Assembly (NCBI GenBank): GCA_026391315.1
Contig: JAPLDT010000088.1
Coordinates: 6,222-70,221, forward strand
DNA length: 64,000 nucleotides
Origin: Bacteroidia bacterium
GTDB lineage: Bacteria > Bacteroidota > Bacteroidia > Bacteroidales > Prolixibacteraceae
Reading direction: 5' to 3'
A program made the translations under genes and the position numbers. Each line of letters starts with the position of its first letter. Position 1 is the stretch's first letter. Of this stretch, positions 36,553 through 62,784 are shown one piece after another. The notes beneath the pieces were generated by a model that saw nothing but the letters and a program-made list of their open reading frames with translations, ran no database searches and was not told the origin of the DNA.

Positions 36553-36621
36553 CCCTTCGGCTACGCTCAGGGACCGGTGCCTTTTTAAACTCTTCACCCT
36601 TCGGCTACGCTCAGGGACCGG
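36553..36621 (+). repeat. Two copies of the 25-nt repeat CCCTTCGGCTACGCTCAGGGACCGG, 44 nt apart
   Basis: The copies lie at 36553-36577 and 36597-36621 and are exact over the core. CCTAGTCATCC words follow. Confidence 0.9.
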
Positions 36622-36761
36622 TACTCGTCCTAGTCATCCTAGTCATCCAAGTCGTCCTAGTCCTTGCACAGCTTCGCCTCCTCAGTCCCATTTCTTTGCA
36701 AAAGGACTGCTATTTGCTTCTTAATAAATGTAGCCGGCAAAACCAGTGCGGTTAAGTCGGC

Positions 36762-37301
36762 TTAGTTTTTGTGCTGCCACAAAAGCAGCATATCTTTTTC
36801 GCTCATCTCCTGGTAAGTCGATTTGAACTGCAGCGTATTGATGAGTTTGTAACAGATGTCTTTTTGTAACAGGGGCTTAGCCTTTTTGATCAATGAATCC
36901 AGAAAATCGGTGTCAATATCGTTTCCGACCAGGAGTACGTCGATGTTGGGTCCGTCGCTTCCGTGCGCGAACGAGCCGGTAAGGTAAACTTCCTCTACCG
37001 ATCCAAGTTTTTCAATCACCTGTTCAAGTATTTGATCGATGCCCAAATGTTTGTGCAACAGATTTTTTATTTCCGGATATAATGGGTAGGAGGTGTTCGC
37101 GGAGTAGATCCTGCGGTTACCGGATTCATGGGCTACGATAAGGCCGGCCTGCTCGAAACGGTTCAGTTCCAGACGTATGGAATTGGTTGATTCGCCAAAT
37201 TCGCTCTCCAAACCACGCAGGTAAGCCTGGGTGCTGCTGTTGAGAAAAAACTTCAACAACAACCGTATTCTGGTCTTGGATGTTATTAGGTCACCGAGCA
37301 T
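36762..37301 (-). CDS. Winged-helix (ArsR-like) transcriptional regulator fused to a nucleotidyltransferase-like domain
   Basis: 179 aa. The N-terminal KTRIRLLLKFFLNSSTQAYLRGLESEFGESTNSIRLELNRFEQAGLI is a wHTH. The C-terminal EVYLTGSFAHGSDGPNIDVLLVG resembles a minimal NTase motif. Confidence 0.6.
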   Translation of the reverse strand: MLGDLITSKTRIRLLLKFFLNSSTQAYLRGLESEFGESTNSIRLELNRFEQAGLIVAHESGNRRIYSANTSYPLYPEIKNLLHKHLGIDQILEQVIEKLGSVEEVYLTGSFAHGSDGPNIDVLLVGNDIDTDFLDSLIKKAKPLLQKDICYKLINTLQFKSTYQEMSEKDMLLLWQHKN

Positions 37302-37515
37302 TCAACTTAGGTTAATTGAGTAGCTAAATTACTCATTTGGAGTTTTGGATGATTTTTTGAAATAATTACAAAAAATAGGTCAAAGATGGGATAAGGCAAG
37401 CAGAGTCGAAGAAATATTACACAGAGAAAAAATAACTATTAATGAAATATCTGTTTGGGATGGAAATTTATGCCTCCTGATAAATTTTAGAGGAAAACAC
37501 AGAGTTCACGGAGTT

Positions 37516-37536
37516 AAAAATCGCAAGCGATTTTTT
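37516..37536. terminator. Weak palindromic terminator-like hairpin between the wbpA-like gene and the regulator
   Basis: AAAAATCGC AA GCGATTTTT. The stem is short and AT-rich, so this is only suggestive. Confidence 0.25.
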
Positions 37537-37627
37537 CTCTTTGAATAATAATTTGCCCGGTCAGAGATGTCAATGACGCCTGATAAATGACATCTGATGC
37601 TAAAACAAGCAGATGAAATTCCCGTTT

Positions 37628-37653
37628 CCCCTTCGGCTTCGCTCAGGGACCGG
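37628..37653 (+). repeat. 25-nt repeat, single copy
   Basis: The sequence is CCCTTCGGCTTCGCTCAGGGACCGG. It lies 8 nt downstream of the wbpA-like stop. Confidence 0.85.
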
Positions 37654-37660
37654 AACGTTT

Positions 37661-38965
37661 TTATAGTTTGTAAACCTTATCGGATGCTATTTTCACGGCA
37701 TTACGGAGATCGACGATCAGTTTTGCATTTTTAAGGATATCGTCGATGTCGAAAACAGAGTGGCTGGTGGTAATGACTACACAGTCTGATTGTTGGAGCA
37801 GCTCAGAGGTAAGCGGCGCTGAATTGAAATGAAGGCCCCTGGTGGTGGCAATGGTTGGGATGTAAGGATCATGGTAATGAATGATCCCTCCTTTTTGGGC
37901 TACTTCGTCAATGATTTTAAGCGCCGGGGATTCGCGTTCGTCGTTAATATCAGGTTTGTAGGCTACTCCTAAAAACAATATTTTGCTTCCGTTAATCGCC
38001 TTTTGTTGTCGGTTCAGCGCGGACGCAATCTTAAGGGTCATCCGATGGGGCATCATCATGTCGATGTGGCCCGCGGTATGGATCATGGAGAGGTCGAAGT
38101 TGAATTTTTTGGCAATGTGTTCGAGGTAAAACGGATCGAGCGGGATGCAATGGCCGCCAATACCCGGACCCGGATAAAAGGCCTGGAACCCATATGGTTT
38201 AGTTTTGGCGGCATCGATTACTTCCCATATATCGATGTTCATTTTCCCGCACAACAGGGCCATTTCGTTGATCAGGCTGATGTTGATCAACCGGTAAGTA
38301 TTCTCCAGTATCTTCACCATTTCGGCAACCTTAGGGGAGCTTACAGGGTGAATCTGGTCAATGGCATAACCATAAATTGCCTTTCCCAACACCAATCCGT
38401 CATCTGACATTGCACCCAGTACTTTAGGGGTATTTCTGGTCCCGAATTGTTTATTTCCTGGATCGACCCGTTCAGGGGAATATGCCAGCCAAAAATCAAT
38501 TCCCTCTTTTAGCCCTGATTCCCTTTCCAGGATTGGCAACATGAAATCTTCGGTCGTGGTTGGATAGGTTGTACTTTCGAGACAGATAAAGGTACCCTTC
38601 TTCATGTTTTGACCTATCTCCCGACAAGCTGTTTCTATGAATTCCATGTTCGGTTTCTTGAACTGGTCGAGAGGAGTTGGCACGCAAATTAGTATGGCAT
38701 CACATTCGCTGATTCTCGAAAAATCGGTTGTGGCTTTGAAATATTTGTTTCCGACCGCTTCTGAGAGCTCCTGATCAGAAACATCTCCAATGTAGTTAAT
38801 TCCGCTATTTACTTTTTCAACTTTAGAAAGGGACTTGTCGAATCCAATGGTCATGACTTTCTTTTCCGCGAAGCTTACAGCAAGCGGTAGACCAACATAA
38901 CCGAGGCCGATGATGCCGACAGTGAAGTCGTTATTCGATATTTTTTGAAGTAAATTTGATTTCAC
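37661..38965 (-). CDS. UDP-N-acetyl-D-glucosamine (or -mannosamine) 6-dehydrogenase, WbpA/WecC-like
   Basis: 434 aa. It shows VGIIGLGYVGLPLAV and GGHCIPLDP. The only possible start is GTG at 38963-38965, inside the ACGAAT-triplet motif. Confidence 0.8.
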   Translation of the reverse strand: MKSNLLQKISNNDFTVGIIGLGYVGLPLAVSFAEKKVMTIGFDKSLSKVEKVNSGINYIGDVSDQELSEAVGNKYFKATTDFSRISECDAILICVPTPLDQFKKPNMEFIETACREIGQNMKKGTFICLESTTYPTTTEDFMLPILERESGLKEGIDFWLAYSPERVDPGNKQFGTRNTPKVLGAMSDDGLVLGKAIYGYAIDQIHPVSSPKVAEMVKILENTYRLINISLINEMALLCGKMNIDIWEVIDAAKTKPYGFQAFYPGPGIGGHCIPLDPFYLEHIAKKFNFDLSMIHTAGHIDMMMPHRMTLKIASALNRQQKAINGSKILFLGVAYKPDINDERESPALKIIDEVAQKGGIIHYHDPYIPTIATTRGLHFNSAPLTSELLQQSDCVVITTSHSVFDIDDILKNAKLIVDLRNAVKIASDKVYKL

Positions 38966-38988
38966 GAATTTTGACGAATTACACGAAT
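38961..38988 (-). repeat. ACGAAT-triplet motif overlapping the GTG start of the wbpA-like gene
   Basis: The sequence is TTCACGAATTTTGACGAATTACACGAAT. The CAC at 38963-38965 is the reverse complement of the GTG start. Confidence 0.85.
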
Positions 38989-39199
38989 ATGTTAATGAAG
39001 ATTTGTGCGAACAATTGAGTTATAAATTTGATATATAAACCTTATTTTTCTGTTTAAACCTTAGTAGAAATGGGTGGTAGATTGAATCTGACCTTATTAC
39101 CTTATTGAATTGGATAAATTAAATAAGGGTGGTTTTAGTATGAATGTTTTTCTTTTTCAAATATTGCATTTTTCCGTCTGAAACAGAAATTTACGCCTC

Positions 39200-39340
39200 T
39201 TTGTGCTGCCTCTCGCAGGCGGTTCAACTTTCCACATCTCTACCCCGGGGTGCCGCTCCTTCGTCGCTCTGCCCCGGGCTACAAATATGCCGCCACTACG
39301 TGGCTGGATTAGTAAGCGTGCTATATTGTGGTTTGGAACC
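39200..39340. repeat. Partial, diverged copy of the composite repeat core
   Basis: CCCCGGGGTGCCGCTCCTTCGTCGCTCTGCCCCGGGCTACAA is shared with 42822-42862. The hairpin GCCAC-TAC-GTGGC at 39292-39304 replaces CCGC-TAC-GCGG. Confidence 0.75.
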
Positions 39341-39444
39341 GGCCTTATATTCTTGCCCATCGACCCTTCGTCCTATCTTCCCTTCATTCTTCCATCCGTC
39401 CCTCAGTCATTTTAGTCATTTTCCGTCCTACCCGTTTCATTTTC

Positions 39445-40335
39445 TCACCTACGAAGACTGCTGGCGATTTCAATGCTTTTCCTTGCATCGTCGATGCCGA
39501 AGCCTTCACCGTTCAGGATGGCTTTGTAGCTTTCGGTATGCAGATCGGTAAAGCCTTCGCTAAATTCAAGCTCTTCACCTTCAATGTTTATTTTGCGGTA
39601 GGTGCGTTTTTGGTTGGCAACAGCTTCTGCGGGCAAGTCATTTTCATCCACACTCAAAAACCAGTTGACATTAGCCTTTTCAAAGTAAAGTTTGCCTCCG
39701 GCTTTCCCTGGTAGGTTAATTTCCTGTTCCACACCCTTAAAATCGCCGAAAACCCATCCCAACATGTCAAAAAAGTGTATTCCGATATTGGTGGCAACTC
39801 CTCCGGATTTATGAATATCCCCTTTCCAGGAGAAAAAGTACCAATTTCCGCGACTGGTGATGTAGGAGAGATCAACTTCGTACACTTTGCCTTTTGGCCC
39901 ATCATCAATGTTTCTTTTTAACTGCTGAATGGCAGGATGTAACCTTAACTGCAGGATTGTAAATATTCTTTTGCCGGTTTCCTGTTCGATCTCCTGCAGG
40001 CCATCCAGATTCCAGGGATTCAATACCAAAGGTTTCTCACAGATGGCATGTGCATCATTGCGCAAGGCCATTCGCATATGGGCGTCGTGAAGATAATTGG
40101 GGGAACAAATGCTCACATAATCTATTTTCTGGGTACCCAGACGGCGAAGTTTATCAAGGTGTCTGTCAAATCTTTCGGGTTCTGTGAAGAAATCTGCTTT
40201 AGGAAAATAACTATCCATAATGCCAATGCCGTCGTAAGGATCAAGGGCACAAACCAGATTGTTCCCAGTCTCTTTGATGGCTTTCAGGTGGCGGGGGGCA
40301 ATGTAGCCGGCGGCTCCGATTAAAGCAAAATTCAT
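39445..40335 (-). CDS. UDP-N-acetyl-2-amino-2-deoxy-D-glucuronate 3-dehydrogenase, WbpB/WlbA-like (Gfo/Idh/MocA)
   Basis: 296 aa. MNFALIGAAGYIAPRHLKAIKETGNNLVCALDPYDGIGIMDSYFP...ICSPNYLHDAH...ICEKPLVL closely follows the WbpB/WlbA pattern. Confidence 0.8.
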   Translation of the reverse strand: MNFALIGAAGYIAPRHLKAIKETGNNLVCALDPYDGIGIMDSYFPKADFFTEPERFDRHLDKLRRLGTQKIDYVSICSPNYLHDAHMRMALRNDAHAICEKPLVLNPWNLDGLQEIEQETGKRIFTILQLRLHPAIQQLKRNIDDGPKGKVYEVDLSYITSRGNWYFFSWKGDIHKSGGVATNIGIHFFDMLGWVFGDFKGVEQEINLPGKAGGKLYFEKANVNWFLSVDENDLPAEAVANQKRTYRKINIEGEELEFSEGFTDLHTESYKAILNGEGFGIDDARKSIEIASSLRR

Positions 40336-40340
40336 ATTTA

Positions 40341-40374
40341 CTAATTACACTAATTTAGACGAATTACACGAACG
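40341..40374 (-). repeat. ACGAAT-triplet motif (first unit degenerate)
   Basis: The sequence is CTAATTACACTAATTTAGACGAATTACACGAACG. It lies 5 nt upstream of the wbpB-like start. Confidence 0.75.
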
Positions 40375-40518
40375 ATATAATGAGGATTTGTAGAATAAAG
40401 CAAGTAAGAAATCAGCGTATTAATTGAACCTGAACCTTGCACAGCTTCGCCTCCTCAGTCCCATTCTATGTAAAAAGGACTGCTATTTTTGCAATTGCGA
40501 CACTGGATTGTAGTTTAT

Positions 40519-40577
40519 GATGTTATTAGGTCGCCAAATATTCAACTTAGGTTAATTGAGTAGCTAAATTACTCATT
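40519..40577 (-). pseudogene. Relic of the wHTH-regulator 5' end and promoter-proximal region (start codon lost)
   Basis: GATGTTATTAGGTCGCCAAATATTCAACTTAGGTTAATTGAGTAGCTAAATTACTCATT aligns with 37279-37337 (about 5 mismatches), and CAT has become AAT at the start-codon position. Further similarity links 40632-40648 to 37356-37372. The downstream hairpin repeat is also duplicated (36662-36716 versus 40435-40492). Confidence 0.7.
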
Positions 40578-40807
40578 AAATTCAAAATTCCAAACTATAT
40601 ATGTGGCTTTAATGAAGTAATGGGTAATTTATTTGAAATAATTACAATAAAAAGGTGATAACAATACAGAGGACCCTTGCTTGAATTAGTTCCAGATGAT
40701 TGAAATTTGAGTCGATTCCAATTAGTGTCATACTATGAGCTCGTTGTGGTAAAAAGATATGACACGAATATCACTAAGGGAAAAACAAAGGACATTAAAT
40801 AGATGCC

Positions 40808-41380
40808 TTATATTTTTCTGACTGAATCATTTTTGAGTTCGTATTTGTCTCCGCTTTCGGCACAAACAGCATGGCCGGAGTCGTTGAAATGGAGGCGGAT
40901 TCCGTATTCGGAGATCCAGCCAATCTGAATGGCAGGATTGCCAACAACAAGGGCGTATGGCTCGACAGTTTTGGTCACGACCGCTCCGGCACCCACAAAT
41001 GCATATTCGCCAATGTCGTTTCCGCACACAATGGTGGCATTGGCGCCAATGGATGCCCCTAATTTCACGGTAGTTTTCGCGTATTCATTCTTCCGGTTGA
41101 CATGGCTGCGCGGATTGATGACATTGGTGAAGACACAGGAGGGTCCGAGGAAGACATCGTCCTCGCAAACGACTCCGGTGTATAGGGATACATTGTTTTG
41201 CACTTTCACATTGTTGCCCAGCACCACTTCGGGTGAGACAACAACGTTTTGGCCAATATTGCAGTTTTCACCGATGACTGCACCGGTCATGATATGAGAA
41301 AAGTGCCAGATTTTCGTGTTGTTACCAATGGTACATCCGGGATCGATTATTGCAGATGGATGAGCGGTGTAGTCGGGCAT
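40808..41380 (-). CDS. UDP-2-acetamido-3-amino-2,3-dideoxy-D-glucuronate N-acetyltransferase, WbpD/WlbB-like (LbH)
   Basis: 190 aa. It shows KIWHFSHIMTGAVIGENCNIGQNVVV...VFTNVINPRS...GANATIVCGNDIGEYAFVGAGAVVTKTVEPYALVVGNPA. Confidence 0.85.
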   Translation of the reverse strand: MPDYTAHPSAIIDPGCTIGNNTKIWHFSHIMTGAVIGENCNIGQNVVVSPEVVLGNNVKVQNNVSLYTGVVCEDDVFLGPSCVFTNVINPRSHVNRKNEYAKTTVKLGASIGANATIVCGNDIGEYAFVGAGAVVTKTVEPYALVVGNPAIQIGWISEYGIRLHFNDSGHAVCAESGDKYELKNDSVRKI

Positions 41381-41478
41381 AAGGTTTCAAAAATAAGGTT
41401 TATATTATCCTGGAATTCAATAATCACAGTTTCTCCGTTTCGTTTCTTCTTCGTTTCAATTCTTCCGGTTTCCCTGTT

Positions 41479-42591
41479 TCAATTTCTAAAATCAAGAATA
41501 GTCTCACAAATGTAACTCAACTCTTCCTCCGTCATTTCAGTATGAATAGGAAGGGCGAGAACTGATTCACAGAGCTTTTCTGTTACCTGCAGAGAAAATC
41601 CGACAGGGACATATTTGCTAAATGCCTGTTGTTTGTAGAGTGGTAAGGGGTAGTAGATCATGGTTGGAATCCCCTTTTCTGCAAGGTATTCTTTTAGACG
41701 ATCCCTTATTCCATCCTTTATTTTCAGTGTAAACTGGTTGCAGGTGGTTGGTGTGGCAGGCAAATAGGAGGGCAATATTGCGTATTCGAAATTTTTCAGT
41801 GCCTTTTGGTAGAAGGCCCCTACGGCCTTGCGCGCCTCCAGGTAAGTATCAAGGTGAGGGAGTTTGACATTCAAGATAGCAGCCTGCAAAGTATCGAGGC
41901 GCGAGTTGCAGCCTACAACTTCATGGTAATATTTTTTCTTCTGACCATGGTTGGCGATCATCCGGATCTTTTCGGCTAGCGCCGGAAGGTTGGTCATTAT
42001 AGCGCCACCGTCGCCCATGCATCCAAGATTTTTGGTGGGGAAGAAGGAGGTACAGCCAATGTGGCCGATGGTGCCGGCCTTCTTGATCGTCCCGTCCAAA
42101 AAGCGACAGGTGGCTCCAAGCGACTGGGCATTGTCTTCAATGACAAAAAGTTGATGGGCTTCGGCCAGTTTCATTAACGGCTCCATGTCGGCACATTGAC
42201 CGAAGAGATGCACGGGGATAATGGCTCTGGTGCGTGAGGTTATTGCATTGATAATCCCCGATAGGGATATGTTGAAAGTATTTTCATCGACATCCACCAT
42301 CACCGGTTGCAGGCCCAGAAGCGCTATCACTTCCGCGGTAGCGACATAAGTAAAGGCAGGGAGGATTACCTCATCGCCTGGTTTAAGTTCGAGCGCCATC
42401 AGGGCAATTTGCAAGGCATCTGTTCCGTTGGCGCATGCGATTACATAATCTGCCTGCAAAAATTCCGCCAGTTTCTTTTCGAAAATGGCAACCTCTTCCC
42501 CTTTGATAAAGGCGGATGAGTTTATTACCCGCTGAATAGCGGAAAGGATAGGCTGTTCCAACTTTTTGTGCTGGGAGAGCAGATCGACCAT
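41479..42591 (-). CDS. UDP-2-acetamido-2-deoxy-3-oxo-D-glucuronate aminotransferase, WbpE/WlbC-like (DegT family)
   Basis: I start it at the internal Met (MVDLLSQHKKLEQPI). The 22 upstream codons in the ORF track (MRKTEPVPERSRRANILL) are a translation of the 25-nt repeat at 42618-42642. It also shows CANGTDALQIALMALELKPGDEVILPAFTYVATAEV. Confidence 0.85.
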   Translation of the reverse strand: MVDLLSQHKKLEQPILSAIQRVINSSAFIKGEEVAIFEKKLAEFLQADYVIACANGTDALQIALMALELKPGDEVILPAFTYVATAEVIALLGLQPVMVDVDENTFNISLSGIINAITSRTRAIIPVHLFGQCADMEPLMKLAEAHQLFVIEDNAQSLGATCRFLDGTIKKAGTIGHIGCTSFFPTKNLGCMGDGGAIMTNLPALAEKIRMIANHGQKKKYYHEVVGCNSRLDTLQAAILNVKLPHLDTYLEARKAVGAFYQKALKNFEYAILPSYLPATPTTCNQFTLKIKDGIRDRLKEYLAEKGIPTMIYYPLPLYKQQAFSKYVPVGFSLQVTEKLCESVLALPIHTEMTEEELSYICETILDFRN

Positions 42592-42702
42592 GTCAATTTT
42601 TTTGAGCAAGATGTTTGCCCTTCGGCTACGCTCAGGGACCGGTTCTGTTTTTCTCATTTTGTTGTTACCCTCTCACCTTCAATTATTAGCGCGTTCCGTC
42701 CG

Positions 42703-42990
42703 CCCTTCGGCTACGCTCAGGGACCGGTCTCATCTTCTTGTCATTCGTTCTGTCCGTCCGAATTAATCCTATTGATTTTCTCGGCATGCTACCGCGGACG
42801 GCTTTCTTCGCATCATTCCAACCCGGGGTGCCGCTCCTTCGTCGCTTTGCCCCGGGCTACAATACTATAACCGCTACGCGGTAGGATTCGAGAAGGATCC
42901 ACATTGTGGTCAGGAAATTTAGATTGTGCAAAAGCCAATTTTCACATTTTCACATTTTCACATTTTCCAATTTTCACATTATTTTCACCC
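42703..42990. repeat. Composite dispersed repeat of about 290 nt, copy 1
   Basis: By eye it aligns with 59628-59930 at roughly 80-85 percent. The order is the 25-nt repeat, GGTCTCATC, GTCCGTCCGAA, CTACCGCGGACGG, a GC hairpin, CCGCTACGCGG, GGATCCAnATTGTGGTCAGGAAATTTAG, then a TTTCACAT word array. Confidence 0.85.
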
Positions 42991-42995
42991 GTCTG

Positions 42996-43123
42996 CCCTT
43001 CGGCTTCGCTCAGGGACCACCCCGCTCAGGGACTGGTCTCATTTTCTCATATTCCCCCTCGGCTACGCTCGGGGACCGGTGACTTGTCCCAGTCATCCCC
43101 CTTCGGCTACGCTCAGGGACCGG
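42996..43123 (+). repeat. Cluster of three 25-nt repeats plus a partial duplicate
   Basis: Copies lie at 42996-43018 (with a partial repeat at 43021-43036), 43055-43079 and 43098-43123. Spacing is irregular. Confidence 0.85.
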
Positions 43124-43924: not shown

Positions 43925-44794
43925 TCAAACCAGCGATAGCAAGTATTGTCCGTATTGATTCTTTTTTAGCAAATTACCTTGTTCACGGAGTTGAGCCTCG
44001 TCAATCCACTTGTTGCGAAAGGCGATCTCTTCTAGGCAGGCGACTTTGAGCCCCGTGCGTTTTTCGATGGTGGCAATGAAGGAGCCGGCCTCAAGCAACG
44101 ATTCATGGGTTCCGGTGTCGAGCCATGCGTAACCGCGACCCATCAGCTCAACTTTAAGCTCTTTTCTGTCGAGATAAACCTGGTTGACTGTGGTGATTTC
44201 CAGTTCGCCCCTGGGAGATGGTTTTATATTTTTTGCAATCCCTATCACAGAATTGGGGTAAAAGTAGAGTCCAATTACAGCATAATTGGATTTGGGTTTG
44301 TCAGGTTTCTCTTCGATGGTGGTGACATTTTCACTTGAATCGAATGTACATACCCCATAGCGTTCAGGATCATTGACCCAGTAGCCAAATACCGCAGCTT
44401 TTCTGTGAAAGGTCACCTGCTCAACGGCCTTGTTGAGGAGCTCAATAAATCCGTGTCCATAGAAAATATTGTCGCCTAAAACGAGACAGACGTCGTCGGA
44501 TCCAATAAAGTCTTCACCCAGTACAAATGCCTGGGCCAAACCATCCGGTGAAGGTTGGACAACATATTGAAGTTCAATGCCGAACTGAGAACCATCACCC
44601 AGCAGCCGGATAAAGGCGGCCTGTTCTTCGGGGGTAGTAATTATCAGTATTTCGCGGATGCCTGCCAGCATCAGCACCGACATAGGATAGTAAATCATCG
44701 GTTTATCGTAGATCGGGAGCAACTGCTTCGAAGTGCCAAGCGTAATCGGGTGCAGCCGCGATCCGGATCCGCCTGCAAGGATGATACCCTTCAT
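43925..44794 (-). CDS. rmlA: Glucose-1-phosphate thymidylyltransferase
   Basis: 289 aa. It shows [37 protein letters not shown]...[15 protein letters not shown]. Confidence 0.95.
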
Positions 44795-44871
44795 GGTAAG
44801 TGGATAAGTTGGTTTATAGGCGAAGATAGGAAGAATTTTGGAATGTTACGTTTTCTGGGGAATGAAACATT

Positions 44872-44951
44872 AAACGGGAAGAGGGAAACGGGAAGAGGGA
44901 AGAGGGAAACGGGAAGAGGGAAACGGGAAGAGGGAAGAGGGAAGAGGGAAT
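44872..44951 (+). repeat. Polypurine GGGAAGA/GGGAAAC tandem word array (about 13 GGG tracts)
   Basis: The sequence AAACGGGAAGAGGGAAACGGGAAGAGGGAAGAGGGAAACGGG... is read directly. It fits the G3-N4-G3 quadruplex motif many times over. Confidence 0.9.
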
Positions 44952-45049
44952 GGAGAGATAAATGTTGTTGGCAAATTTGGAATTATGGTAAAATATCGGT
45001 ATATTTAGGTAAGAGTTTAGGTTGTCAATTATTTTTAATTCTTTCAATT

Positions 45050-45427
45050 ATGAAAAATATAATATTGGTGCACACTGATTTAATTGTCTTTCAAAACGCA
45101 TTTAATTCGGCCGTTCAAATACATCAGTTTTCGCAAAACTTCCCATCTGAAGAAAAATTCTCCTTAACTGACCAAATTAGAAGAAGTTCACGATCAGTAG
45201 CTGCAAATCTTGCTGAGGCATTTAGAAAGAGAAGATACCCTAAGTCTTTTATTTCTAAATTGACAGATAGTGAAGGAGAGGCCGCAGAAACACAGGTATG
45301 GCTAAAGTTCGCAAATACCTTTAATTATCTTAACAGTGAGGATTATAATAAAATTAACTCAGCTTACGATCGCATTATTGCACAAATTGTTACGATGGTT
45401 CTCAATCCTGATAAGTGGACATTTTAA
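45050..45427 (+). CDS. Four-helix-bundle protein (TIGR02436 / 23S rRNA intervening-sequence protein family, Avd-like)
   Basis: 125 aa from the ATG at 45050. It shows FQNAFNSAVQIHQFSQNFPSEEKFSLTDQIRRSSRSVAANLAEAFRKRRYPKSFISKLTDSEGEAAETQVWL. The upstream part of track ORF 44555-45427 is antisense rmlA plus repeat sequence. Confidence 0.8.
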   Translation: MKNIILVHTDLIVFQNAFNSAVQIHQFSQNFPSEEKFSLTDQIRRSSRSVAANLAEAFRKRRYPKSFISKLTDSEGEAAETQVWLKFANTFNYLNSEDYNKINSAYDRIIAQIVTMVLNPDKWTF

Positions 45428-45991: not shown

Positions 45992-46056
45992 ATTCGGTAG
46001 ATTATAGATTCATACATCATTGAAAAAGAAGGGGAGACTGGGCGAATGAAAGAAAT

Positions 46057-46357
46057 GTTTGAAATGTTTAAAAAGTTTGAAAAGTTACCGGTCCCTGAGC
46101 GAAGTCGAAGGGAAATGTTTGAAATGTTTAGGAAGTTTAAAAAGTTGCTGGTCCCTGAGCCTGTCGAAGGGGCGAAGTAATTGGATAAAATAGTCACCGG
46201 TCCCTGAGCTTGTCGAAGGGGTTTTTCTGTATGGACCTTATGGTAAATAAATTTCACAACAAAGATCACAAGAGTTGACACGAAGGACACAAGGACTTCA
46301 ATTTTTCGGTTAAACTCCGGCACCGTTAACATTTCAAACTTTTTAAACATTTCAAAC
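46057..46357. promoter_or_regulatory. 30-bp inverted repeat pair (29/30 match) bracketing a 241-bp segment upstream of upxY; candidate invertible element
   Basis: The left arm at 46057-46086 is GTTTGAAATGTTTAAAAAGTTTGAAAAGTT. The right arm at 46328-46357 is AACATTTCAAACTTTTTAAACATTTCAAAC. The interior holds three reversed 25-nt repeats (46088-46112, 46148-46172, 46197-46221) and a second left-arm-like copy at 46117-46146. Confidence 0.5.
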
Positions 46358-46438
46358 AATTTAAACCAATAAGAAGTTGCGCAATTCTAAAAGTATAGGA
46401 TATGCAGGCAAAAGCATTCTCCCCTTCTCCCCCTCTTT

Positions 46439-56674: not shown

Positions 56675-56683
56675 AATGCAAAT

Positions 56684-56814
56684 TTGGAAAATGTGAAAAT
56701 TGAGGAACGATCAGATGTAAAATTATAAAAGGAATTGGAATTTTTATGAATTCTATTTTCCCTTAACACAAATCTTTCTTCATTTTCCAATTTTCCAATT
56801 TTCACATTTTCCAA
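56684..56814. repeat. 19-bp perfect inverted repeat spanning almost the whole DUF4838/aldose-epimerase spacer
   Basis: The left arm at 56684-56702 is TTGGAAAATGTGAAAATTG. The right arm at 56796-56814 is CAATTTTCACATTTTCCAA. The loop is 93 nt. Confidence 0.85.
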
Positions 56815-56822
56815 TTTTCACA

Positions 56823-59549
56823 TTATTTGATGTTTTCAATCAGACTGTGAAACGCCTTCCTCTCCACCTCCCCGCCTTCGGAGTAATGGGTTACATTTTC
56901 GCGTTTTGCAATACGGCAGAAATTGTCGTAGGTGCCATCCTGACGGGCAATGGCTGGTGTGCGTTTGCATTTGAGATAGAGAACTGGCAAGGAGCACATT
57001 TCAACACGGCGAACCACTTCGTCATTGTCGGCTACTTTAACCGCCTCTTTGAAAATATCGCACGACTGTTGCACGAAATCATCGGAGAAGATGGCATCGC
57101 CCGGTGTCAGTCCCAGATGTATATGGGTATCCGGTGTGATACGGTTGTGCAGCAGATCGAAATATTGCCTGACGAACTTTCCGGCCCGACCATAATAACC
57201 GTACATGAAATCGTTGATAACTGCCTCAGTATTGCACTCCGGATTCCACAATAATTTGGAAATCAGGTAGGAACGAAGCTCGGAAAACTCACCCCCACGG
57301 CTTTGGTAAGCAGCCTGCTCCATGATGCCAATGGCGTTGTTGTCCCTGAACGACTGTATGTTGGATTGCAGTACCCTGAAGTTGGGGTAAGGCATCACAT
57401 AATGCAAGAAATTAACCACATAATCCCAGATGTACATGTGGGGCGCAATGGCCGACCATCCCTTCAGATCATTGAGGAAGGATTTGTTTTCGGGACAGGA
57501 TTTGAAATCGTGTGCGAAACAGCATTCGATGCTGCACAACCGCACCACCACATTGTTCCTGGGCTTGATGTCTTTTGGCGGTGTTCTGGTATAAGTGTAG
57601 GCCAGTGTGCCGATAAATTTGTCAGGGAACTCCTTCTCCACCGCTTCGGCCACCTGATTTACAAACCAGATGATCAGTCCGGATTCGCTCCCTTTGGCCT
57701 TGACTATGGCCTGGCATTTGTCGCATTGGCACGGGTTGTTCCAGTCGTTTTGGGAGACATCGTAAATCAGGTATTCAGGACTTTCGCGCATCCGTTTTCT
57801 GATACGGTCTGTGATAATTCGCAGTACATCCGGGTTTGTGAGGCAAAGCTGTGCCTGCTCATGGATCCGTTTGCCATCGATTAAACTGTAATATTCGGGA
57901 TGTTTTTTGTAAAATTCTTCCGGTGGCATCAGCGGGTAAAAGGTATGAACCGCCCAGTAGCTATCGATGCCGCCGGGTTGTTCGCGGTAGCCCATGGCTC
58001 CGTTCATCTTGTTGCGGGTGGCCCAGATCGGATCAAAAGCCTCAAAATAGAAATCATTCCGTACCCGGACGCCCGGTTTTTCGGCATGGTCGAACCAGAC
58101 AAATTTCAGCTCCTCCCTTTTGGGGATCACATTCACGGTAGGGGTGTACCAACGGCAGCCCAGCTCTCTTTCCAGGAATTCGAAGACACCATACATGGTG
58201 CCACGCTTCTGGCCTCCGGTGATGAAAATGTTAGGACCGGAGTTGTAGTAGTGGAAGGATTCTTCGGCTGAAGCGGTGGTCTCCGCTGAGCCTGTCGAAG
58301 CGTGAAACCTTACAAGTGGGGATAAGTCGGTCCCTGAGCTTGTCGAAGGGTTTTGGGAGCTCTTCGAATCTGACTGAAAAGTGATTGATGACGCTTCGAC
58401 AGGCTCAGCGACCGGATCTTTCTTCTTCATTGTCAATTTGTTCACTTCGACAGGCTCAGTGAACAAATTGACTGCATCAGTACCAACTACAATTTTCGGT
58501 CCTTTATAATTCGGGTCTTCAGGGAGTTGCGGCAATTCCACCCCACTGATCTCCTTCAACCAGTGCTGAAGCTCTTTGGCAGCCCATTTTTCTGATTCTG
58601 AGGCATTGTTGGCAATGGCGATCCGGTAATCAGATTTTCCATGACTGAAAAGTGCATATTCGATTCGCTTTCCTGCCGTGAATTCGCTTGTTCGTTGCAG
58701 TATCTTTCCCGATTTCAGCTGAACAGTAACCTTTGCCTGGTATGGTTGGTAATTGGCTGACGGAATTTTAAGCGGAGTACAAAAGTTGGCAGTACGATCC
58801 ACCTTCAGGATCTCGGTGCCGTGAATGTCGCTGATGGTTACAGTTACTTTTTGAATCAGGTAGTTCAAAACATCCGGAAGGTAGGAGGAGAGGACGCTTG
58901 CAGTTCCGGATTCGTCAGCCCGGACTTTGAAAAGATCACCTCTATTGAGGGCTTCTGCAGCGGAAAAATTGTGAAATCTCAGGGCGAATCCCCATTTGTT
59001 TCCATGCTGTTCGACTTTTAACAGGAGGGTGTTGGTTCCTTTTTTTAGCATAACGGGGATCAGATCTCCATCAATTATGACACTGCGCTTGGTCGGATAA
59101 TCGAAAACTGAAGTACCGTTTACGAAGAGTTGTGCCCCGTCGTTGGTGCCCAGGCCAATCAGGTGAACACCCTCTTCTGCTGCCTCGACACTGGTAAAGG
59201 CATAGGCAAAAACGGGATAAGATTTGGAGAAGGCTGCGACCAGGTCGACGATCGAATCGGTCGACTGCCAATATTTCCAGACCATCGACTTTTTGCCGAT
59301 TTTGATTGCATCGCCGGCTTTTACCGATAGGTTTTGCTCTCCGCCCAATTTGCCGAGGTAATCTGTCTTGAATCCGGGAAGGTGATCCCACGATTTTTCG
59401 GGATCCGGCTGAGTTTGCAGCGGGATCGGACCGAGCAGCAGCCAGGATTTTAGGAATTGGCCGGGGATGATTTTCTGCGGAACATTTTGACAAAATCCCG
59501 GCAGGGAAATAAGTAGGAATAAAGAAATAGAAAGAAATAGTTGTTTCAT
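56823..59549 (-). CDS. DUF4838-domain putative glycoside hydrolase with N-terminal carbohydrate-binding-like region; carries an in-frame repeat insertion
   Basis: 908 aa. It has a signal peptide (MKQLFLSISLFLLISLPGFC). AAKELQHWLKEISGVELP and RGTMYGVFEFLERELGCRWYTP are typical of DUF4838 proteins. Confidence 0.65.
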   Translation of the reverse strand: MKQLFLSISLFLLISLPGFCQNVPQKIIPGQFLKSWLLLGPIPLQTQPDPEKSWDHLPGFKTDYLGKLGGEQNLSVKAGDAIKIGKKSMVWKYWQSTDSIVDLVAAFSKSYPVFAYAFTSVEAAEEGVHLIGLGTNDGAQLFVNGTSVFDYPTKRSVIIDGDLIPVMLKKGTNTLLLKVEQHGNKWGFALRFHNFSAAEALNRGDLFKVRADESGTASVLSSYLPDVLNYLIQKVTVTISDIHGTEILKVDRTANFCTPLKIPSANYQPYQAKVTVQLKSGKILQRTSEFTAGKRIEYALFSHGKSDYRIAIANNASESEKWAAKELQHWLKEISGVELPQLPEDPNYKGPKIVVGTDAVNLFTEPVEVNKLTMKKKDPVAEPVEASSITFQSDSKSSQNPSTSSGTDLSPLVRFHASTGSAETTASAEESFHYYNSGPNIFITGGQKRGTMYGVFEFLERELGCRWYTPTVNVIPKREELKFVWFDHAEKPGVRVRNDFYFEAFDPIWATRNKMNGAMGYREQPGGIDSYWAVHTFYPLMPPEEFYKKHPEYYSLIDGKRIHEQAQLCLTNPDVLRIITDRIRKRMRESPEYLIYDVSQNDWNNPCQCDKCQAIVKAKGSESGLIIWFVNQVAEAVEKEFPDKFIGTLAYTYTRTPPKDIKPRNNVVVRLCSIECCFAHDFKSCPENKSFLNDLKGWSAIAPHMYIWDYVVNFLHYVMPYPNFRVLQSNIQSFRDNNAIGIMEQAAYQSRGGEFSELRSYLISKLLWNPECNTEAVINDFMYGYYGRAGKFVRQYFDLLHNRITPDTHIHLGLTPGDAIFSDDFVQQSCDIFKEAVKVADNDEVVRRVEMCSLPVLYLKCKRTPAIARQDGTYDNFCRIAKRENVTHYSEGGEVERKAFHSLIENIK
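58270..58472 (-). repeat. Nested palindromic repeat block of about 200 nt translated in frame inside the DUF4838 gene
   Basis: Four CTGAGC-NNN-TCGAAG units are present, two in each orientation. There is a perfect 19-bp inverted repeat (58284-58302 / 58392-58410) and a 14-bp-stem palindrome at 58432-58472. Confidence 0.8.
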
Positions 59550-59627: not shown

Positions 59628-59930
59628 CCCTTCGGCTACACTCAGGGACCGGTCTCATCCATACATTTTCCCATTCTTTGCTTCTTTCAAAATTGTTACT
59701 GTTCCGTCCGAAATTAACTTACCATCTTTTTTTGGCATACTACCGCGGACGGCTCTTTATCATCATTCCCAACCTGGGGTGTCGCTCCTTCGTCGCTTTA
59801 CCTCGGACTACAATACTATAACCGCTACGCGGTAAGATTCGAAAAGGATCCATATTGTGGTCAGGAAATTTAGGATTGTGCAAAAGCCAATTTTCACATT
59901 TTCACATTTTCACATTTCCAAATTATTTTC
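59628..59930. repeat. Composite dispersed repeat of about 300 nt, copy 2
   Basis: See 42703-42990. It has the same orientation relative to the flanking minus-strand genes. Confidence 0.85.
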
Positions 59931-60017
59931 ACGCTTCTGCCTGTCTCTCTATCGTCCCAGTCATCCCAGTCATCCCAGTCGTCCAAGTCGTCCCTCGTCT
60001 CCCTGTCCCTCCGTCTC

Positions 60018-62444
60018 TCAGTCATTCTTAAGCAGCCACACCTCCGCCACCTGCGAACCCCTTTCTCCTTCTCCTTTGTCGTTTTGGGCGCAGCTCCAGG
60101 TGAAGGTTACTTTGCCGGATTGAGTCACCTCTTTCGGAAGTTGAAACTCAAAGATAGGCTGTGTTCCCATTCTGATAAAGTCGTGGATCAGGATGCCGTT
60201 GGCTTCGAGTTTCATCTTCGAGCGGAAACGTCCGGTGTAGGCTACGCGCAGTGTATATTTTCCTGCAGGGTCAAGATCGGTATATTCCATCACCAGTGGG
60301 GTGAAATAGAGGGTGTTGATCTGGTTCATCCAGGCCAGCGGAGTGGTTTGCCCTTCGAAGCCTTTGGCCACAATTTCGTCTACCCATTCAACACCTTTGA
60401 GTCCGACGCCGAAGCTGACGCGGGGCGATTCGAGGCTTCCGGGATCCTCCTGCCATCTTTTCTGTGATTTCACATGTTTCCACGAAGCCGGATTTCCAAG
60501 GTTATCGTAAAATCCGCCGGGGCCGGGATCGGTGCGGTGCAGCATCTTGCCAATATCGGCCAGTCGTTCCTTTTCATCGGTTCGTTTTTCGACCCGGTTG
60601 AGCTGGTCCAGCAGCCAGAGTGCGTCGTTGAGCGGGATGTCGATGTTGTCGATAAAGTTACCACGACCGCTCATGGCATGGTGTTTTTTGATGGTGAGCT
60701 GGGCACCGAAGCTTCGGAAAAGAGAATCCGCCAGGGCAAAGCAACGGCTTCTCAGCGGTTGTGCTATGGGCTCCTCTTTGGCCTGAAGCAGCGTGTGCCG
60801 GGCATCCTGGATGGCTTTGAGTGTTTCGGATGGTTTGGTTACTTCAAGAATGGACCGGGCCTGTTGTTCCAGATCAGTTTCATAGATCAGACGCCGCCGG
60901 ATGTAGGCATCAAAGTAGGCCCTGATAAGTCCGCTCTGGAACCTTGGATTTGAAAGCACCTCCGTGGAAGCTGAACGCTCCATGTCCTGCCATTGTTGTA
61001 GGGTTCTCTCGACTTGTTCGTTGGCCAGGAGCGGCCCGCGAAAATTCTGTTCGAGTGCCATCAACCCTTGAGCAACGGCATCTGCATATTGAGGTCCGAT
61101 GAAATAGCGAGCATAATCCCGGAGCGTTTCGATGGCAGGGGTTTCAGGATTCCAGTCCTGGCCGGTCCAGATAAATTTGTTCACGTCGTCGTTGGTGCCC
61201 TCCGAGTAGCTGATGCTTCCCTGTGCCAAAGAGGCATAACGGTTGTGGATCAACTTCTCATCGATCGGACGTGGGTTGATGCATTCGCGACCAAGTGTCA
61301 TGGCAAATGCCAGGTCCCATTGCTGAACCGGATACTGACAGCTGTAGCTGTGGGTGATATCGGGATAGAGACGGATCGGAATGGAGGGGTCAGTCACTTT
61401 GCGAACCTCAGGCAGTGGCATTTTGATCCACGGACCATAAACGACACCTCCCAGCCATTCCGGTTTCTTGTTGATATGGGCAAAAAAGTTTCCATACCAG
61501 ACGGTACTAGGCTTGAATGCCTGGGGGGATACCCAGATTTTGGCATTTGGGTGATATTTTTTCAATACCACAGCCTCCTGGCTTAACCAGTTAAAAAGCG
61601 GATCCGGTTCAAGATCGCCGGGATCGCCTCCGGGTACGAAAAGGGCATCGAGTTTGGGAAGGATGCTGAATATTTTTTCGCGTTCGGCAAGTTCGGCCTT
61701 GATTGAATCGGGGGAGTTGTAGTCGCTGTTCATGTTCGGATACCACATCCAGACATCCAGACCGTAGGATTTGCAGATTTTGGCCTGTTCGACAATCATT
61801 TGGATGGCGGGCAATTTCATGTGCACACTGGTGGCATCGTCATCGGTACGGGGAGGCATGATCTCGATGCTGTTGGCGCCGAAAAGAGCGAGATCGCGAA
61901 TGTAGCGGTCGTATTGGGCGACGGTCCAGGCATCGTAGGCATTGGTTTTTGGACGATAACCCAGCTGGTGGCCTCGGATGGGATAGGTGGGGGTTGAAGA
62001 GAGTGCGAGACGATCAGGTAAAAGTATTTTGTTCGCAGAGAGCTCCATCTTACGAAGGAGATATCCTGCTCCGAAAAGTGCACCTCGCTCATCATGGCCT
62101 GCGATAACCACCGTATTGGCATCCGGTATGACTATTTTGTACCCATCTTTCCCGGTAGGTGGCAGGGAATTCAGTACGGTTGTAATCCCGGTAGGAAGTT
62201 TAATTGCATCTTTTTCGAGACAAATGATAATTTGCGGCAGATCTTTGGAGTCCAGCTTTCCGGCGATAGCCGATTTAATATTGGTATGAAGCAGAAGCTC
62301 TTCCTGCAAAACAGTGGTAGCCTTGAAGAGCAGGAGGTTCTTTTTGTCAGAACAAAAGATGGATGTTTTGGAAAAATCGAGCCATTGCGCGGAAGTCACC
62401 AGCGGCAGGAGCCCCAATGCAAAAATGTAGAGCAAGCGGATCAT
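60018..62444 (-). CDS. Secreted putative glycoside hydrolase (GH20/GH67-like N-terminal domain plus TIM barrel); family uncertain
   Basis: 808 aa. It has a signal peptide (MIRLLYIFALGLLPLVTSAQ). GHDERGALFGAGYLLRKM followed by IRGHQLGYRPKTNAYDAW resembles the N-domain/catalytic junction of hexosaminidase/glucuronidase-like enzymes. Confidence 0.4.
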   Translation of the reverse strand: MIRLLYIFALGLLPLVTSAQWLDFSKTSIFCSDKKNLLLFKATTVLQEELLLHTNIKSAIAGKLDSKDLPQIIICLEKDAIKLPTGITTVLNSLPPTGKDGYKIVIPDANTVVIAGHDERGALFGAGYLLRKMELSANKILLPDRLALSSTPTYPIRGHQLGYRPKTNAYDAWTVAQYDRYIRDLALFGANSIEIMPPRTDDDATSVHMKLPAIQMIVEQAKICKSYGLDVWMWYPNMNSDYNSPDSIKAELAEREKIFSILPKLDALFVPGGDPGDLEPDPLFNWLSQEAVVLKKYHPNAKIWVSPQAFKPSTVWYGNFFAHINKKPEWLGGVVYGPWIKMPLPEVRKVTDPSIPIRLYPDITHSYSCQYPVQQWDLAFAMTLGRECINPRPIDEKLIHNRYASLAQGSISYSEGTNDDVNKFIWTGQDWNPETPAIETLRDYARYFIGPQYADAVAQGLMALEQNFRGPLLANEQVERTLQQWQDMERSASTEVLSNPRFQSGLIRAYFDAYIRRRLIYETDLEQQARSILEVTKPSETLKAIQDARHTLLQAKEEPIAQPLRSRCFALADSLFRSFGAQLTIKKHHAMSGRGNFIDNIDIPLNDALWLLDQLNRVEKRTDEKERLADIGKMLHRTDPGPGGFYDNLGNPASWKHVKSQKRWQEDPGSLESPRVSFGVGLKGVEWVDEIVAKGFEGQTTPLAWMNQINTLYFTPLVMEYTDLDPAGKYTLRVAYTGRFRSKMKLEANGILIHDFIRMGTQPIFEFQLPKEVTQSGKVTFTWSCAQNDKGEGERGSQVAEVWLLKND

Positions 62445-62485
62445 ATCAATTATAGTTAATAGTTACTTGTCGCAGTAAATAAATG

Positions 62486-62685
62486 TTACACAGAGTCTCA
62501 CAGAGGAGCACAGAGTTTCACAGAGAGGACGAATTGTTTGATTTTTTTTTATTGTTTGAAATGTTTGAAATGTTTGAAATGTTTGAAATGTTTGAAATGT
62601 TTGAAATGTTAAGGCTGACAACCCTCCAAATATTTCTTAATTTTTCTCTGTGCAACTCTGTGCTCCTCTGTGTAACTCTGTGTAA
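62486..62685. repeat. 41-bp inverted repeat (38/41 match) of CACAGAG words enclosing a GTTTGAAAT x6 tandem array
   Basis: The left arm is 62486-62526 and the right arm is 62645-62685. The tandem array (9-nt unit) is at 62554-62610. It lies in the divergent spacer between 60018-62444 (-) and 62785-63651 (+). Confidence 0.9.
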
Positions 62686-62784
62686 TAGTTTAAACGATCG
62701 AATAGTAATAGTAGCGAAACACCAAAATCCAAATATCGCAAAAAATTAATTAAATTCGTGCAATACAAACGAATCCATTCGGCT

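Follow-up and report, generated by a model that had tools for sequence, protein, structure and literature searches.

How does the gene of an enzyme come to carry, within its coding sequence and in frame, a block of palindromic DNA of the kind that fills the neighbouring intergenic spacers? This question is raised by a contig stretch of 64,000 nt (the window, to which all coordinates refer), in which an intact gene at 56823..59549 on the minus strand, assigned from its open reading frame (ORF), Pfam and synteny, encodes a 908-aa DUF4838 protein with a signal-peptide-like N-terminal segment; the source names of its close homologues point to the Prolixibacteraceae, Bacteroidota. A first-pass annotation had proposed that a family of spacer repeats has colonised this coding region in frame, and the proposal holds: identical tagged units lie in spacers of the window, and the protein loop into which the block falls has only 18 aa in 90 of 125 homologues. 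We consider it likely that a functional DUF4838 enzyme carries here a cluster of four hairpin repeats of the type of repetitive extragenic palindromes (REPs), placed in frame at a permissive loop on its surface.

The repeats can be delimited from their cores. Exact copies of CTGAGCYTGTCGAAG occur in the gene at 58286-58300 and 58334-58348 on the plus strand and at 58394-58408 and 58445-58459 on the minus strand, in agreement with the four units, two per orientation, of the first-pass annotation; the only other exact copies in the window lie at 46155-46169 and 46204-46218, giving six matches where 0.13 are expected, a number that none of 100 shuffles reached. In coding order, unit 1 (58432..58472, minus strand) has a perfect 15-bp stem, GTCAATTTGTTCACT / AGTGAACAAATTGAC, in which 58432-58446 pairs with 58458-58472 around the loop GAGCCTGTCGA, and encodes ..FTEPVEVNKL..; unit 2 (58390..58415, minus strand) consists of a CCGGTC tag plus CGCT[GAGCCTGTCGA]AGCG and encodes PVAEPVEA; unit 3 (58326..58351, plus strand, hence antisense to the gene) has a TCGGTC tag plus CCCT[GAGCTTGTCGA]AGGG and encodes NPSTSSGTD; and unit 4 (58278..58303, plus strand) has a GGTCTC tag plus CGCT[GAGCCTGTCGA]AGCG and encodes HASTGSAE. 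Units 2 and 4 provide the two arms of a perfect inverted repeat, 58284-58303 pairing with 58391-58410, which had been noticed before but measures 20 bp rather than 19. Similarly, a palindrome that had been set apart from the units and given a 14-bp stem does exist, but the stem has 15 bp and the palindrome is not separate, its 11-nt loop being the fourth unit by coordinate, that is, unit 1. The segment 58328-58350 is indeed identical to the spacer copy at 46198-46220 (23 of 23 bases), and the hairpins are as strong as had been supposed: the 211-nt block folds with -80.4 kcal/mol as RNA (z = -6.3 versus shuffles) and -53 kcal/mol as DNA (z = -8.2), and unit 1 by itself with -13.6 kcal/mol as DNA (z = -7.0). 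The cluster, with two forward and two inverted units, is a nested palindrome resembling those called REPINs (REP doublets forming hairpins) or BIMEs (bacterial interspersed mosaic elements). Miniature inverted-repeat transposable elements measure 50-500 bp, derive from an insertion sequence (IS) and have terminal inverted repeats and a target-site duplication; here, the 127-bp stretch 58284-58410 is bounded by the perfect 20-bp inverted repeat, with no flanking direct repeat and no known parent IS.

The protein that hosts these units has its DUF4838 domain at residues 467-798 (Pfam, E = 1.9e-110) and 686 homologues, typically 852-858 aa long, the closest orthologues having 853 aa. Its gene lies in an order conserved with the orthologous loci L001, L002 and L003 (L-numbers denote orthologous or repeat-bearing DNA fetched from other assemblies, P-numbers homologous proteins), the conserved neighbours being genes for an 808-aa protein, an aldose epimerase, Gfo/Idh/MocA oxidoreductases and a GH92 enzyme. 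A PDB sequence search with the protein gave no match. The repeat block occupies an expanded loop (58266..58481, minus strand; aa 357-428, 216 nt), recognised from the alignment of the 125 homologues, from the confidence of an AlphaFold2 model and from an open-frame test. Between the invariant residues G356 and E430 there are 73 aa here as against the modal 18 aa; expanded loops are confined to a close clade of the alignment, and unit-derived peptides are found solely within this loop, in 8 of the 125 sequences.

This evidence needs some qualification with respect to what had been claimed before. The frame does stay open for 908 aa, but the addition, first put at about 67 aa, comes to about 55 aa, judged both from the whole protein (908 aa as against 853 aa) and from the loop (73 aa as against 18 aa); an example of the encoded peptide is DPVAEPVEASSITFQSDSK. 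A disrupted gene, which would have spoken against colonisation of a working enzyme, is not what we find, the ORF being intact. The suggestion that a structure prediction might reveal a disordered insert proved apt: residues 361-426 have predicted local distance difference test (pLDDT) values of 27-33 and no secondary structure, between flanks at 80-86, in a model that was built on a shallow alignment and in which the catalytic domain is poorly modelled. The segment, placed in a surface loop of the enzyme, is thus predicted to be disordered. Of the six frames of the 216-nt loop, that of the gene is the sole open one, the other five carrying 2-7 stops, and 3.4% of shuffled loops stay open. The repeat units by themselves close just one frame of six (through C-TGA-GC); what the open frame mostly shows, therefore, is which versions have survived selection on the host gene.

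What do the orthologues tell of the history of this loop? Leaving the loop aside, the window protein shares 89% of its residues with that of L001; over the C-terminal half its identity to P0001 (encoded on L127) and to P0005 (on L128) reaches 95-96%, and the flanks of the block are 88-95% identical to orthologues. These closest relatives, L001, L127 and L128, have no hairpin units: their loop is made of a 9-nt tandem repeat, (TCGTCCCAG)n, which also fills intergenic spacers (window 59955-59994; L001 17405-17470). L002, with 83% aa identity, has this tandem repeat plus units 3 and 4, which are co-arranged likewise in P0125, and L003, with 81%, has units 2, 3 and 4 in the order, orientation and frame of the window, unit 2 in a degenerate copy (CCGGTCGCTGAGGTTGCAGAAGCGTC). 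The independent assemblies L002, L003, P0125 and P0126 all have units at the equivalent place. Unit 1 is missing from every orthologue examined; a metagenome scan for its stem variant, the GTTCACT/AGTGAAC core, returned 40 stretches from unrelated loci, the DUF4838 gene not among them. Finally, L124 has one unit that is translated in another frame (PFDYAQGP), from which it follows that the loop has been colonised at least twice independently.

The clean insertion between conserved segments that an orthologue alignment had been expected to confirm is therefore not borne out, since the site is a hypervariable loop and units 2-4 are shared with orthologues of about 80% identity. Judging from these alignments, the loop is an old, hypervariable hot spot in this clade rather than a single clean recent insertion, and only this Prolixibacteraceae clade is seen to have filled it repeatedly with spacer DNA, both of the 9-nt tandem-repeat kind and of the hairpin kind. 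The presence or absence of units differs also in the syntenic spacers of close relatives; for example, L127 has two tagged units inside a tandem-repeat array in the spacer that follows its DUF4838 gene downstream (4485-5028), and the equivalent spacer in L128 (2948-3348) is without them.

A further property of the units is their constancy. Unit 3 and its flanks are identical at 28 of 28 positions between the window and L003, and the unit is identical in L002 too; unit 4 is identical at 19 of 19 positions between the window and L003. At four-fold-type third codon positions, the same genes are identical at only 41% of sites (window versus L003) and 46% (window versus L002), so the constancy is held at the nucleotide level and not at the peptide level. 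From the sequences compared, selection for the peptide of a disordered loop leaves the invariant synonymous positions unexplained. They could be accounted for by selection that acts on DNA or RNA, by correction of the units against other copies or by the repeated insertion of fresh ones.

Could fresh insertion suffice? Units 2-4 would then not be inherited, and each lineage would carry its own recent copies, independently and repeatedly inserted at a hot spot and hence unmutated in appearance. We find this unlikely, though by no means negligible. It would agree with the L124 unit that lies in a different frame of the same loop, with the lack of units in the closest relatives, with the nested units described below, in which the family inserts into hairpin apices, and with the DNA between the units, for which the alignment of the window with L002 and L003 is poor although the units themselves are identical. 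Yet units 2, 3 and 4 share order, orientation, frame and approximate spacing in the window and L003, units 3 and 4 are equally co-arranged in L002 and P0125, and flanks such as AAAAC, ahead of unit 3, and CGAAG.GCGTC, on both sides of unit 2, align as well between window and orthologue.

A rather improbable alternative takes the constancy as functional: the units would be retained as a nucleic-acid element inside the gene, the coding context being exploited rather than tolerated, for instance as an mRNA structure at which ribosomes would pause once the N-terminal domains are made and before the catalytic domain is reached, as a site for processing or stability, as a small RNA internal to the gene or as a DNA site bound by a protein. 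The unmutated units amid saturated synonymous sites would fit this idea, as would the strong RNA fold and a loop sequence that is conserved across phyla while the stems covary; moreover, the Rfam consensus of Aggregatibacter sRNA 41 holds an inverted pair of near-identical units, which indicates that such pairs can be transcribed as small RNA. That match, however, scores 29.8 bits where the gathering score is 97; no unit is present in L001, L127 and L128 or in 117 of the 125 homologues; both orientations occur, so that no single RNA sequence is kept; and no terminator-like T-run follows the hairpins.

It is very improbable that the loop is an ordinary low-complexity linker rich in Ser, Thr and Pro, grown by slippage under selection for a flexible or glycosylated peptide, with an incidental likeness to the spacers. 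Close orthologues do have (SSQ)n-type loops, the reverse units encode the S/T-rich PSTSSGT and ASTGSAE and the loop is predicted to be disordered, but the forward units encode acidic EPVE instead, the synonymous positions within units are invariant, 23 nt are identical to an intergenic copy with a common CCGGTC tag, and the 9-nt tandem repeat of the orthologues is itself a spacer repeat. A pseudogene or an assembly artefact (chimeric join or collapsed repeat) is scarcely credible: palindromes are prone to misassembly and an exact look-up found no protein identical to the 908-aa product in a collection of 15 billion, but the ORF is intact on both sides of the block, the flanks keep their high identity to orthologues, and independent assemblies have units at the same place.

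The explanation that we favour, in-frame clustering of REP-type hairpin repeats in a permissive loop, would work as follows. The units would have come in as non-autonomous DNA, mobile or copy-pasted, with single-stranded hairpins as intermediates, as has been proposed for REPs with their REP-associated tyrosine transposases (RAYTs) and for elements of the IS200/IS605 type, or alternatively by template switching at hairpins. Selection on the host gene would have left just the in-frame, stop-free versions in the tolerant loop. The uniformity of the units might come from correction against other genomic copies or from selection on DNA or RNA structure, and the encoded peptide would be a passenger.

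Several observations weigh against this account. Pfam, run on ten larger ORFs between 33 and 64 kb, identified no transposase, and there are no clear target-site duplications. No protein recurs within 2.5 kb of the units at 120 genome loci, where all-against-all clustering of the 4,663 neighbouring ORFs returned just generic families (ABC ATPases, 5 loci) and shared phage structural genes. As hairpins, lone short units have only marginal stability by nearest-neighbour energies (-1.9 to -2.7 kcal/mol, z around 0), covariation being what supports their stem. As the closest orthologues have no units, the history requires either loss or recurrent gain, which are indistinguishable here. Lastly, the very high conservation of the units could instead mean a host function, in which case passenger would be the wrong word.

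The covariation is seen once the unit is examined beyond this gene. A unit combines a 5' tag, short and unpaired (GGTC or GTTC here), with a stem 4-15 bp long and a conserved 11-nt loop, GAGCYTGTCGA; in its single-stranded hairpin form it can be written as CCGGTCCCTGAGCTTGTCGAAGGG. The typical stem has 4-5 Watson-Crick pairs of variable, covarying sequence, with at least eight types (GGCT/AGCC, TGGT/ACCA, TGCT/AGCA, TCCT/AGGA, CACT/AGTG, CGCT/AGCG and others). Among 112 distinct units whose stems had not been fixed by the search pattern, 88.6% of the cells beside the loop (five positions per side) are paired, as against 63.0% in shuffles, none of 500 being as high, and 31-48% with a slid partner. 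The 5' tag, with the consensus C-C-G-Y-T-C-R, is unpaired and asymmetric, the 3' side having neither a counterpart nor a conserved tail; over 282 units the commonest tags are GTTC (59), TGTC (22), GCTC (17) and CCTC (14), the units of the window having GGTC.

Such units are distributed far beyond the Bacteroidota, over most bacterial phyla. The pattern CCCTGAGCNNGTCGAAGGG was matched by at least 120 stretches of a 596 Gb genome collection, in the whole of which about 70 chance matches are estimated, and in viral contigs, scanned likewise, by at least 120 of them; the genome matches listed come from Bacteroidota, Cyanobacteria, Actinomycetota, all classes of Proteobacteria, Chloroflexota, Acidobacteriota, Planctomycetota, Verrucomicrobiota, Nitrospirota and several lineages of the candidate phyla radiation. 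The loci that were fetched contain 302 occurrences of the loop motif where 7.4 are expected. Proteobacteria and phage contigs usually have the units as an inverted composite, CCGTTCG-CCCT[loop]AGGG ... GGCT[loop']AGCC-CGAACGG, in which both units retain their own, differing, self-complementary stems. BLAST of the proteobacterial composite against plasmids found it in megaplasmids of Sphingobium, Polaromonas and Methylobacter, in stretches that are essentially unannotated (one 'hypothetical protein'). Of 451 units, nine are set precisely into the NN centre of a second unit, from which they differ in stem; nested units are seen in L094, L159, L167, L169, L182, L186, L228 and L240, for example GGTGAGC-CATGAGCTTGTCGAATG-GTCGAACC. 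Arrays of units appear on the phage or provirus contigs L198 (3150-3330 and 3980-4180), L188 (4600-4760 and 7820-7960) and L169 (5450-5720), in the form of two or three abutting head-to-tail units with a period of 21-23 nt or of tandem copies of a two-hairpin composite with a period of 70 nt.

Other genes have also received units in frame. The activation domain of MetH in an Ulvibacter sp. metagenome-assembled genome (MAG; L106) has an inverted pair, HFDRLSVT ... SHPELVEGQ, that adds about 34 aa, its Pfam domain covering 305 residues for 271 profile positions. Similarly, an M17 leucyl aminopeptidase of a Saccharibacteria MAG (L036) has PSTSSGQ right before its LVGKGVTFDTGG motif, about 11 aa more, with 320 residues for 309 profile positions.

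It is possible, though we hold it with more doubt than conviction, that all these units form one undescribed, nearly pan-bacterial and phage-borne superfamily of tagged mini-hairpins, with a tag xxTC, a covarying 4-5-bp stem and a loop GAGC-NN-GTCGA or siblings thereof. The loop would be recognised by a widely conserved machinery; the units would insert at hairpin apices, including their own NN centre, and thereby build palindromic spacers with tandem-repeat arms; they would be copy-corrected, or selected at the nucleotide level, even within coding sequence; and they would repeatedly seed disordered loops, as in DUF4838, MetH and the M17 peptidase. The wider family may be undescribed; full-text literature searches for its 15-mers and six-frame peptides gave no match.

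Within the window there are 17 units, all between 36 and 60 kb, each preceded by CCGGTC or a near variant of it; six have the loop GAGCYTGTCGA, one GAGCGAAGTCGA, nine GAGCGWAGCCGA or its variant GAGTGTAGCCGA, and one more a near variant of that loop and stem. Three tagged units lie in one intergenic spacer (46089..46221, plus strand; cores 46095-46110, 46155-46169 and 46204-46218), inside a spacer-wide palindrome with tandem-repeat arms. A regular-expression scan located eight sibling units on the minus strand (36555..43116), CCGGTCCCTGAGCGWAGCCGAAGGG or near variants with the same tag and stem and a 12-nt loop, at 36555-36570, 36599-36614, 37631-37646, 42620-42635, 42705-42720, 42998-43013, 43057-43072 and 43101-43116, all intergenic or at gene edges; another sibling, CCGGTCCCTGAGTGTAGCCGAAGGG, occupies the spacer directly upstream of the DUF4838 gene (59630..59645, minus strand). 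In these nine siblings the 12-nt loop contains a GCGWAGC mini-hairpin core.

Entire intergenic spacers of the window are large palindromes, the arms of which are arrays of 8-10-nt tandem repeats: 46053-46099 / 46315-46361 (47-nt arms, 89% complementary), 56680-56702 / 56796-56818 (23-nt arms, 96%) and 62481-62526 / 62645-62690 (46-nt arms, 89%). The orthologous spacers of L001, L124 and L127 have the same palindromic design with different repeat units. The GH92 gene (46439 to about 48880, minus strand) presents a second case of spacer-type repeats within coding sequence, having at 48194-48285 an in-frame insert from the tandem repeat EGVKGRGGEGATERSKDGKTKGLGDWETGRSG that makes it 17 aa longer than the L002 orthologue; its N-terminus (48758-48823) is repeat-coded too, with SPSLPVSQSPSPLVPP. 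A separate dispersed element of about 150 nt (..TTCCGTCCGAAATTAAC..CCGCGGACGG..GGGGTGTCGCTCCTTCGTCGC..) is found at 59666-59815, 42753-42864, 39244-39310 and 41383-41487, and also in a non-syntenic spacer of L001 (17039-17186).

As to the surroundings, the GC content is 0.33-0.41 in window positions 1-34000 and 0.43-0.53 in 34000-64000, and the low-GC polysaccharide locus (1-34 kb) has no hairpin unit. At the GC boundary lies a gene for a polysaccharide-export protein (33365-36307), followed by sugar-nucleotide genes at 37.6-44.8 kb. Between a nucleotidyl-transferase gene and a NusG-like gene, the ORF 44555-45427 includes at about 45077-45390 (plus strand) a four-helix-bundle protein of the 23S rRNA intervening-sequence or bAvd-like kind (PF05635, E = 5.5e-30). 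The 808-aa protein (60018-62444, minus strand) belongs to no Pfam family and adjoins the DUF4838 gene in all syntenic loci (L001, L002, L003, L124 and L126).

These findings bear on how new protein segments arise. A single enzyme loop offers a comparative series, from 18 aa to the tandem repeat only and then to two, three and four hairpin units, in which selfish or structural DNA makes new disordered protein segments. The identity of units amid saturated synonymous sites, together with a loop motif that recurs, with covarying stems, across most phyla and in phage contigs, points to a conserved process at the level of nucleic acids. In practical terms, the units give spurious ORFs and odd insertions, and annotation pipelines should recognise them.

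How, finally, does this repeat compare with known systems? Some classes can be set aside. For an intrinsic terminator, neither strand of 58270-58480 has a GC-rich hairpin with a T-run, and the core motifs of hammerhead or other ribozymes, of tRNA-like T or D arms and of integron attC sites, compared by inspection, do not fit. Rfam scans of the window and 21 related loci gave no family at gathering score, with weak, repeat-driven matches to RF02901 and to microRNA models. RF02901 (AaHKsRNA41, Aggregatibacter sRNA 41) has in its consensus an inverted pair, GCUGAgCUUGcCGAAGC ... UUCGgCAAGcUCAgC, which is one loop difference away from the present unit and aligns to the window block and to a Nitrosomonadales element; at 29.8 and 27.2 bits, and with the repeat portion alone matching, the block is not a member of this small RNA family. 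The cyanobacterial small dispersed repeats that Elhai and colleagues reportedly described in 2008, for Nostoc and Anabaena only, are said to be 21-27 nt long, to have hairpin potential and to be nested and set among intergenic short tandem repeats, their mobility having been deduced from orthologous regions; the likeness to our units lies in the very small size, the nesting and the setting among tandem repeats.

The REPIN or BIME doublets associated with RAYTs (Bertels and Rainey 2011, PMC3116915) are closer in architecture. Like them, the present units are imperfect palindromes of 20-40 nt that form inverted doublets folding into a larger hairpin and clusters of alternating orientation, whether in the gene, in Proteobacteria or in phage contigs, and their tag-plus-hairpin layout would suit a single-strand transposase. 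They differ in having no GTAG tag but GGTC, GTTC, TGTC, GCTC or CCTC instead, in not being species-specific, in the intragenic position of the copy studied here and in that no RAYT was found among the ten window ORFs scanned or near the units at the loci surveyed.

A second comparison is with the intragenic REPs tagged by GTAG or CGTC, which occur as singles, dimers and clusters encoding up to 43-82 aa, and for which a position in flexible loops or linkers has been argued (Di Nocera, De Gregorio and Rocco 2013, PMC3733652). The CGTC REPs, too, are short hairpins with an unpaired 4-nt tag at one end, predominantly in inverted dimers, present in several phyla and without a dedicated transposase (PMC3733652). 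The layout of the tag is the same, and some tags of our family (TGTC, CCTC) are identical to CGTC variants, although canonical CGTC is not its main form. In contrast, the four CGTC families have conserved 8-9-bp stems starting with A-T, 4-5-nt loops and a CCA tail, whereas our units have a variable, covarying outer stem, a conserved 11-nt 'loop' and no CCA tail, and so fall outside that definition; the peptides FDKLR, SLSK, LVEG and STSSG are absent from the table of intragenic REPs in PMC3733652.

The precedent invoked by the first-pass annotation, the in-frame Rickettsia palindromic elements (RPEs; Ogata et al. 2000, 2002, via PMC10969869 and PMC3733652), was well chosen, even if in-frame repeats of REP type are documented well beyond Rickettsia (PMC3733652), where CGTC-1 and CGTC-4 are equated with RPE-6 and RPE-4. 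Both kinds are palindromic, occur in intergenic DNA as well as in frame in unrelated functional genes, leave the ORF intact and place their peptide at a tolerated position, and homologues without the extra segment exist in our case. On the other hand, elements of the RPE-1 type follow a single consensus of about 100-150 bp and are restricted to Rickettsia, whereas the unit here has about 25 nt, forms a cluster of four and is unrelated in sequence, its host being a free-living, Prolixibacteraceae-like member of the Bacteroidota and its loop motif extending across many phyla and phage contigs. By unit length, host and peptides it stands apart from the RPE consensus families, the RPE-4 and RPE-6 peptides (VIPAKAGI, SFPRKRES and DTVVKPRYD) being unrelated to EPVE or STSSG. 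In sum, the phenomenon is already known in kind, from intragenic REPs and RPEs, and this repeat is a further member of it; the colonisation of genes in frame by repeats of REP type, of which Rickettsia and a few Proteobacteria provide the best-known cases, is hereby extended in range to the Bacteroidota.

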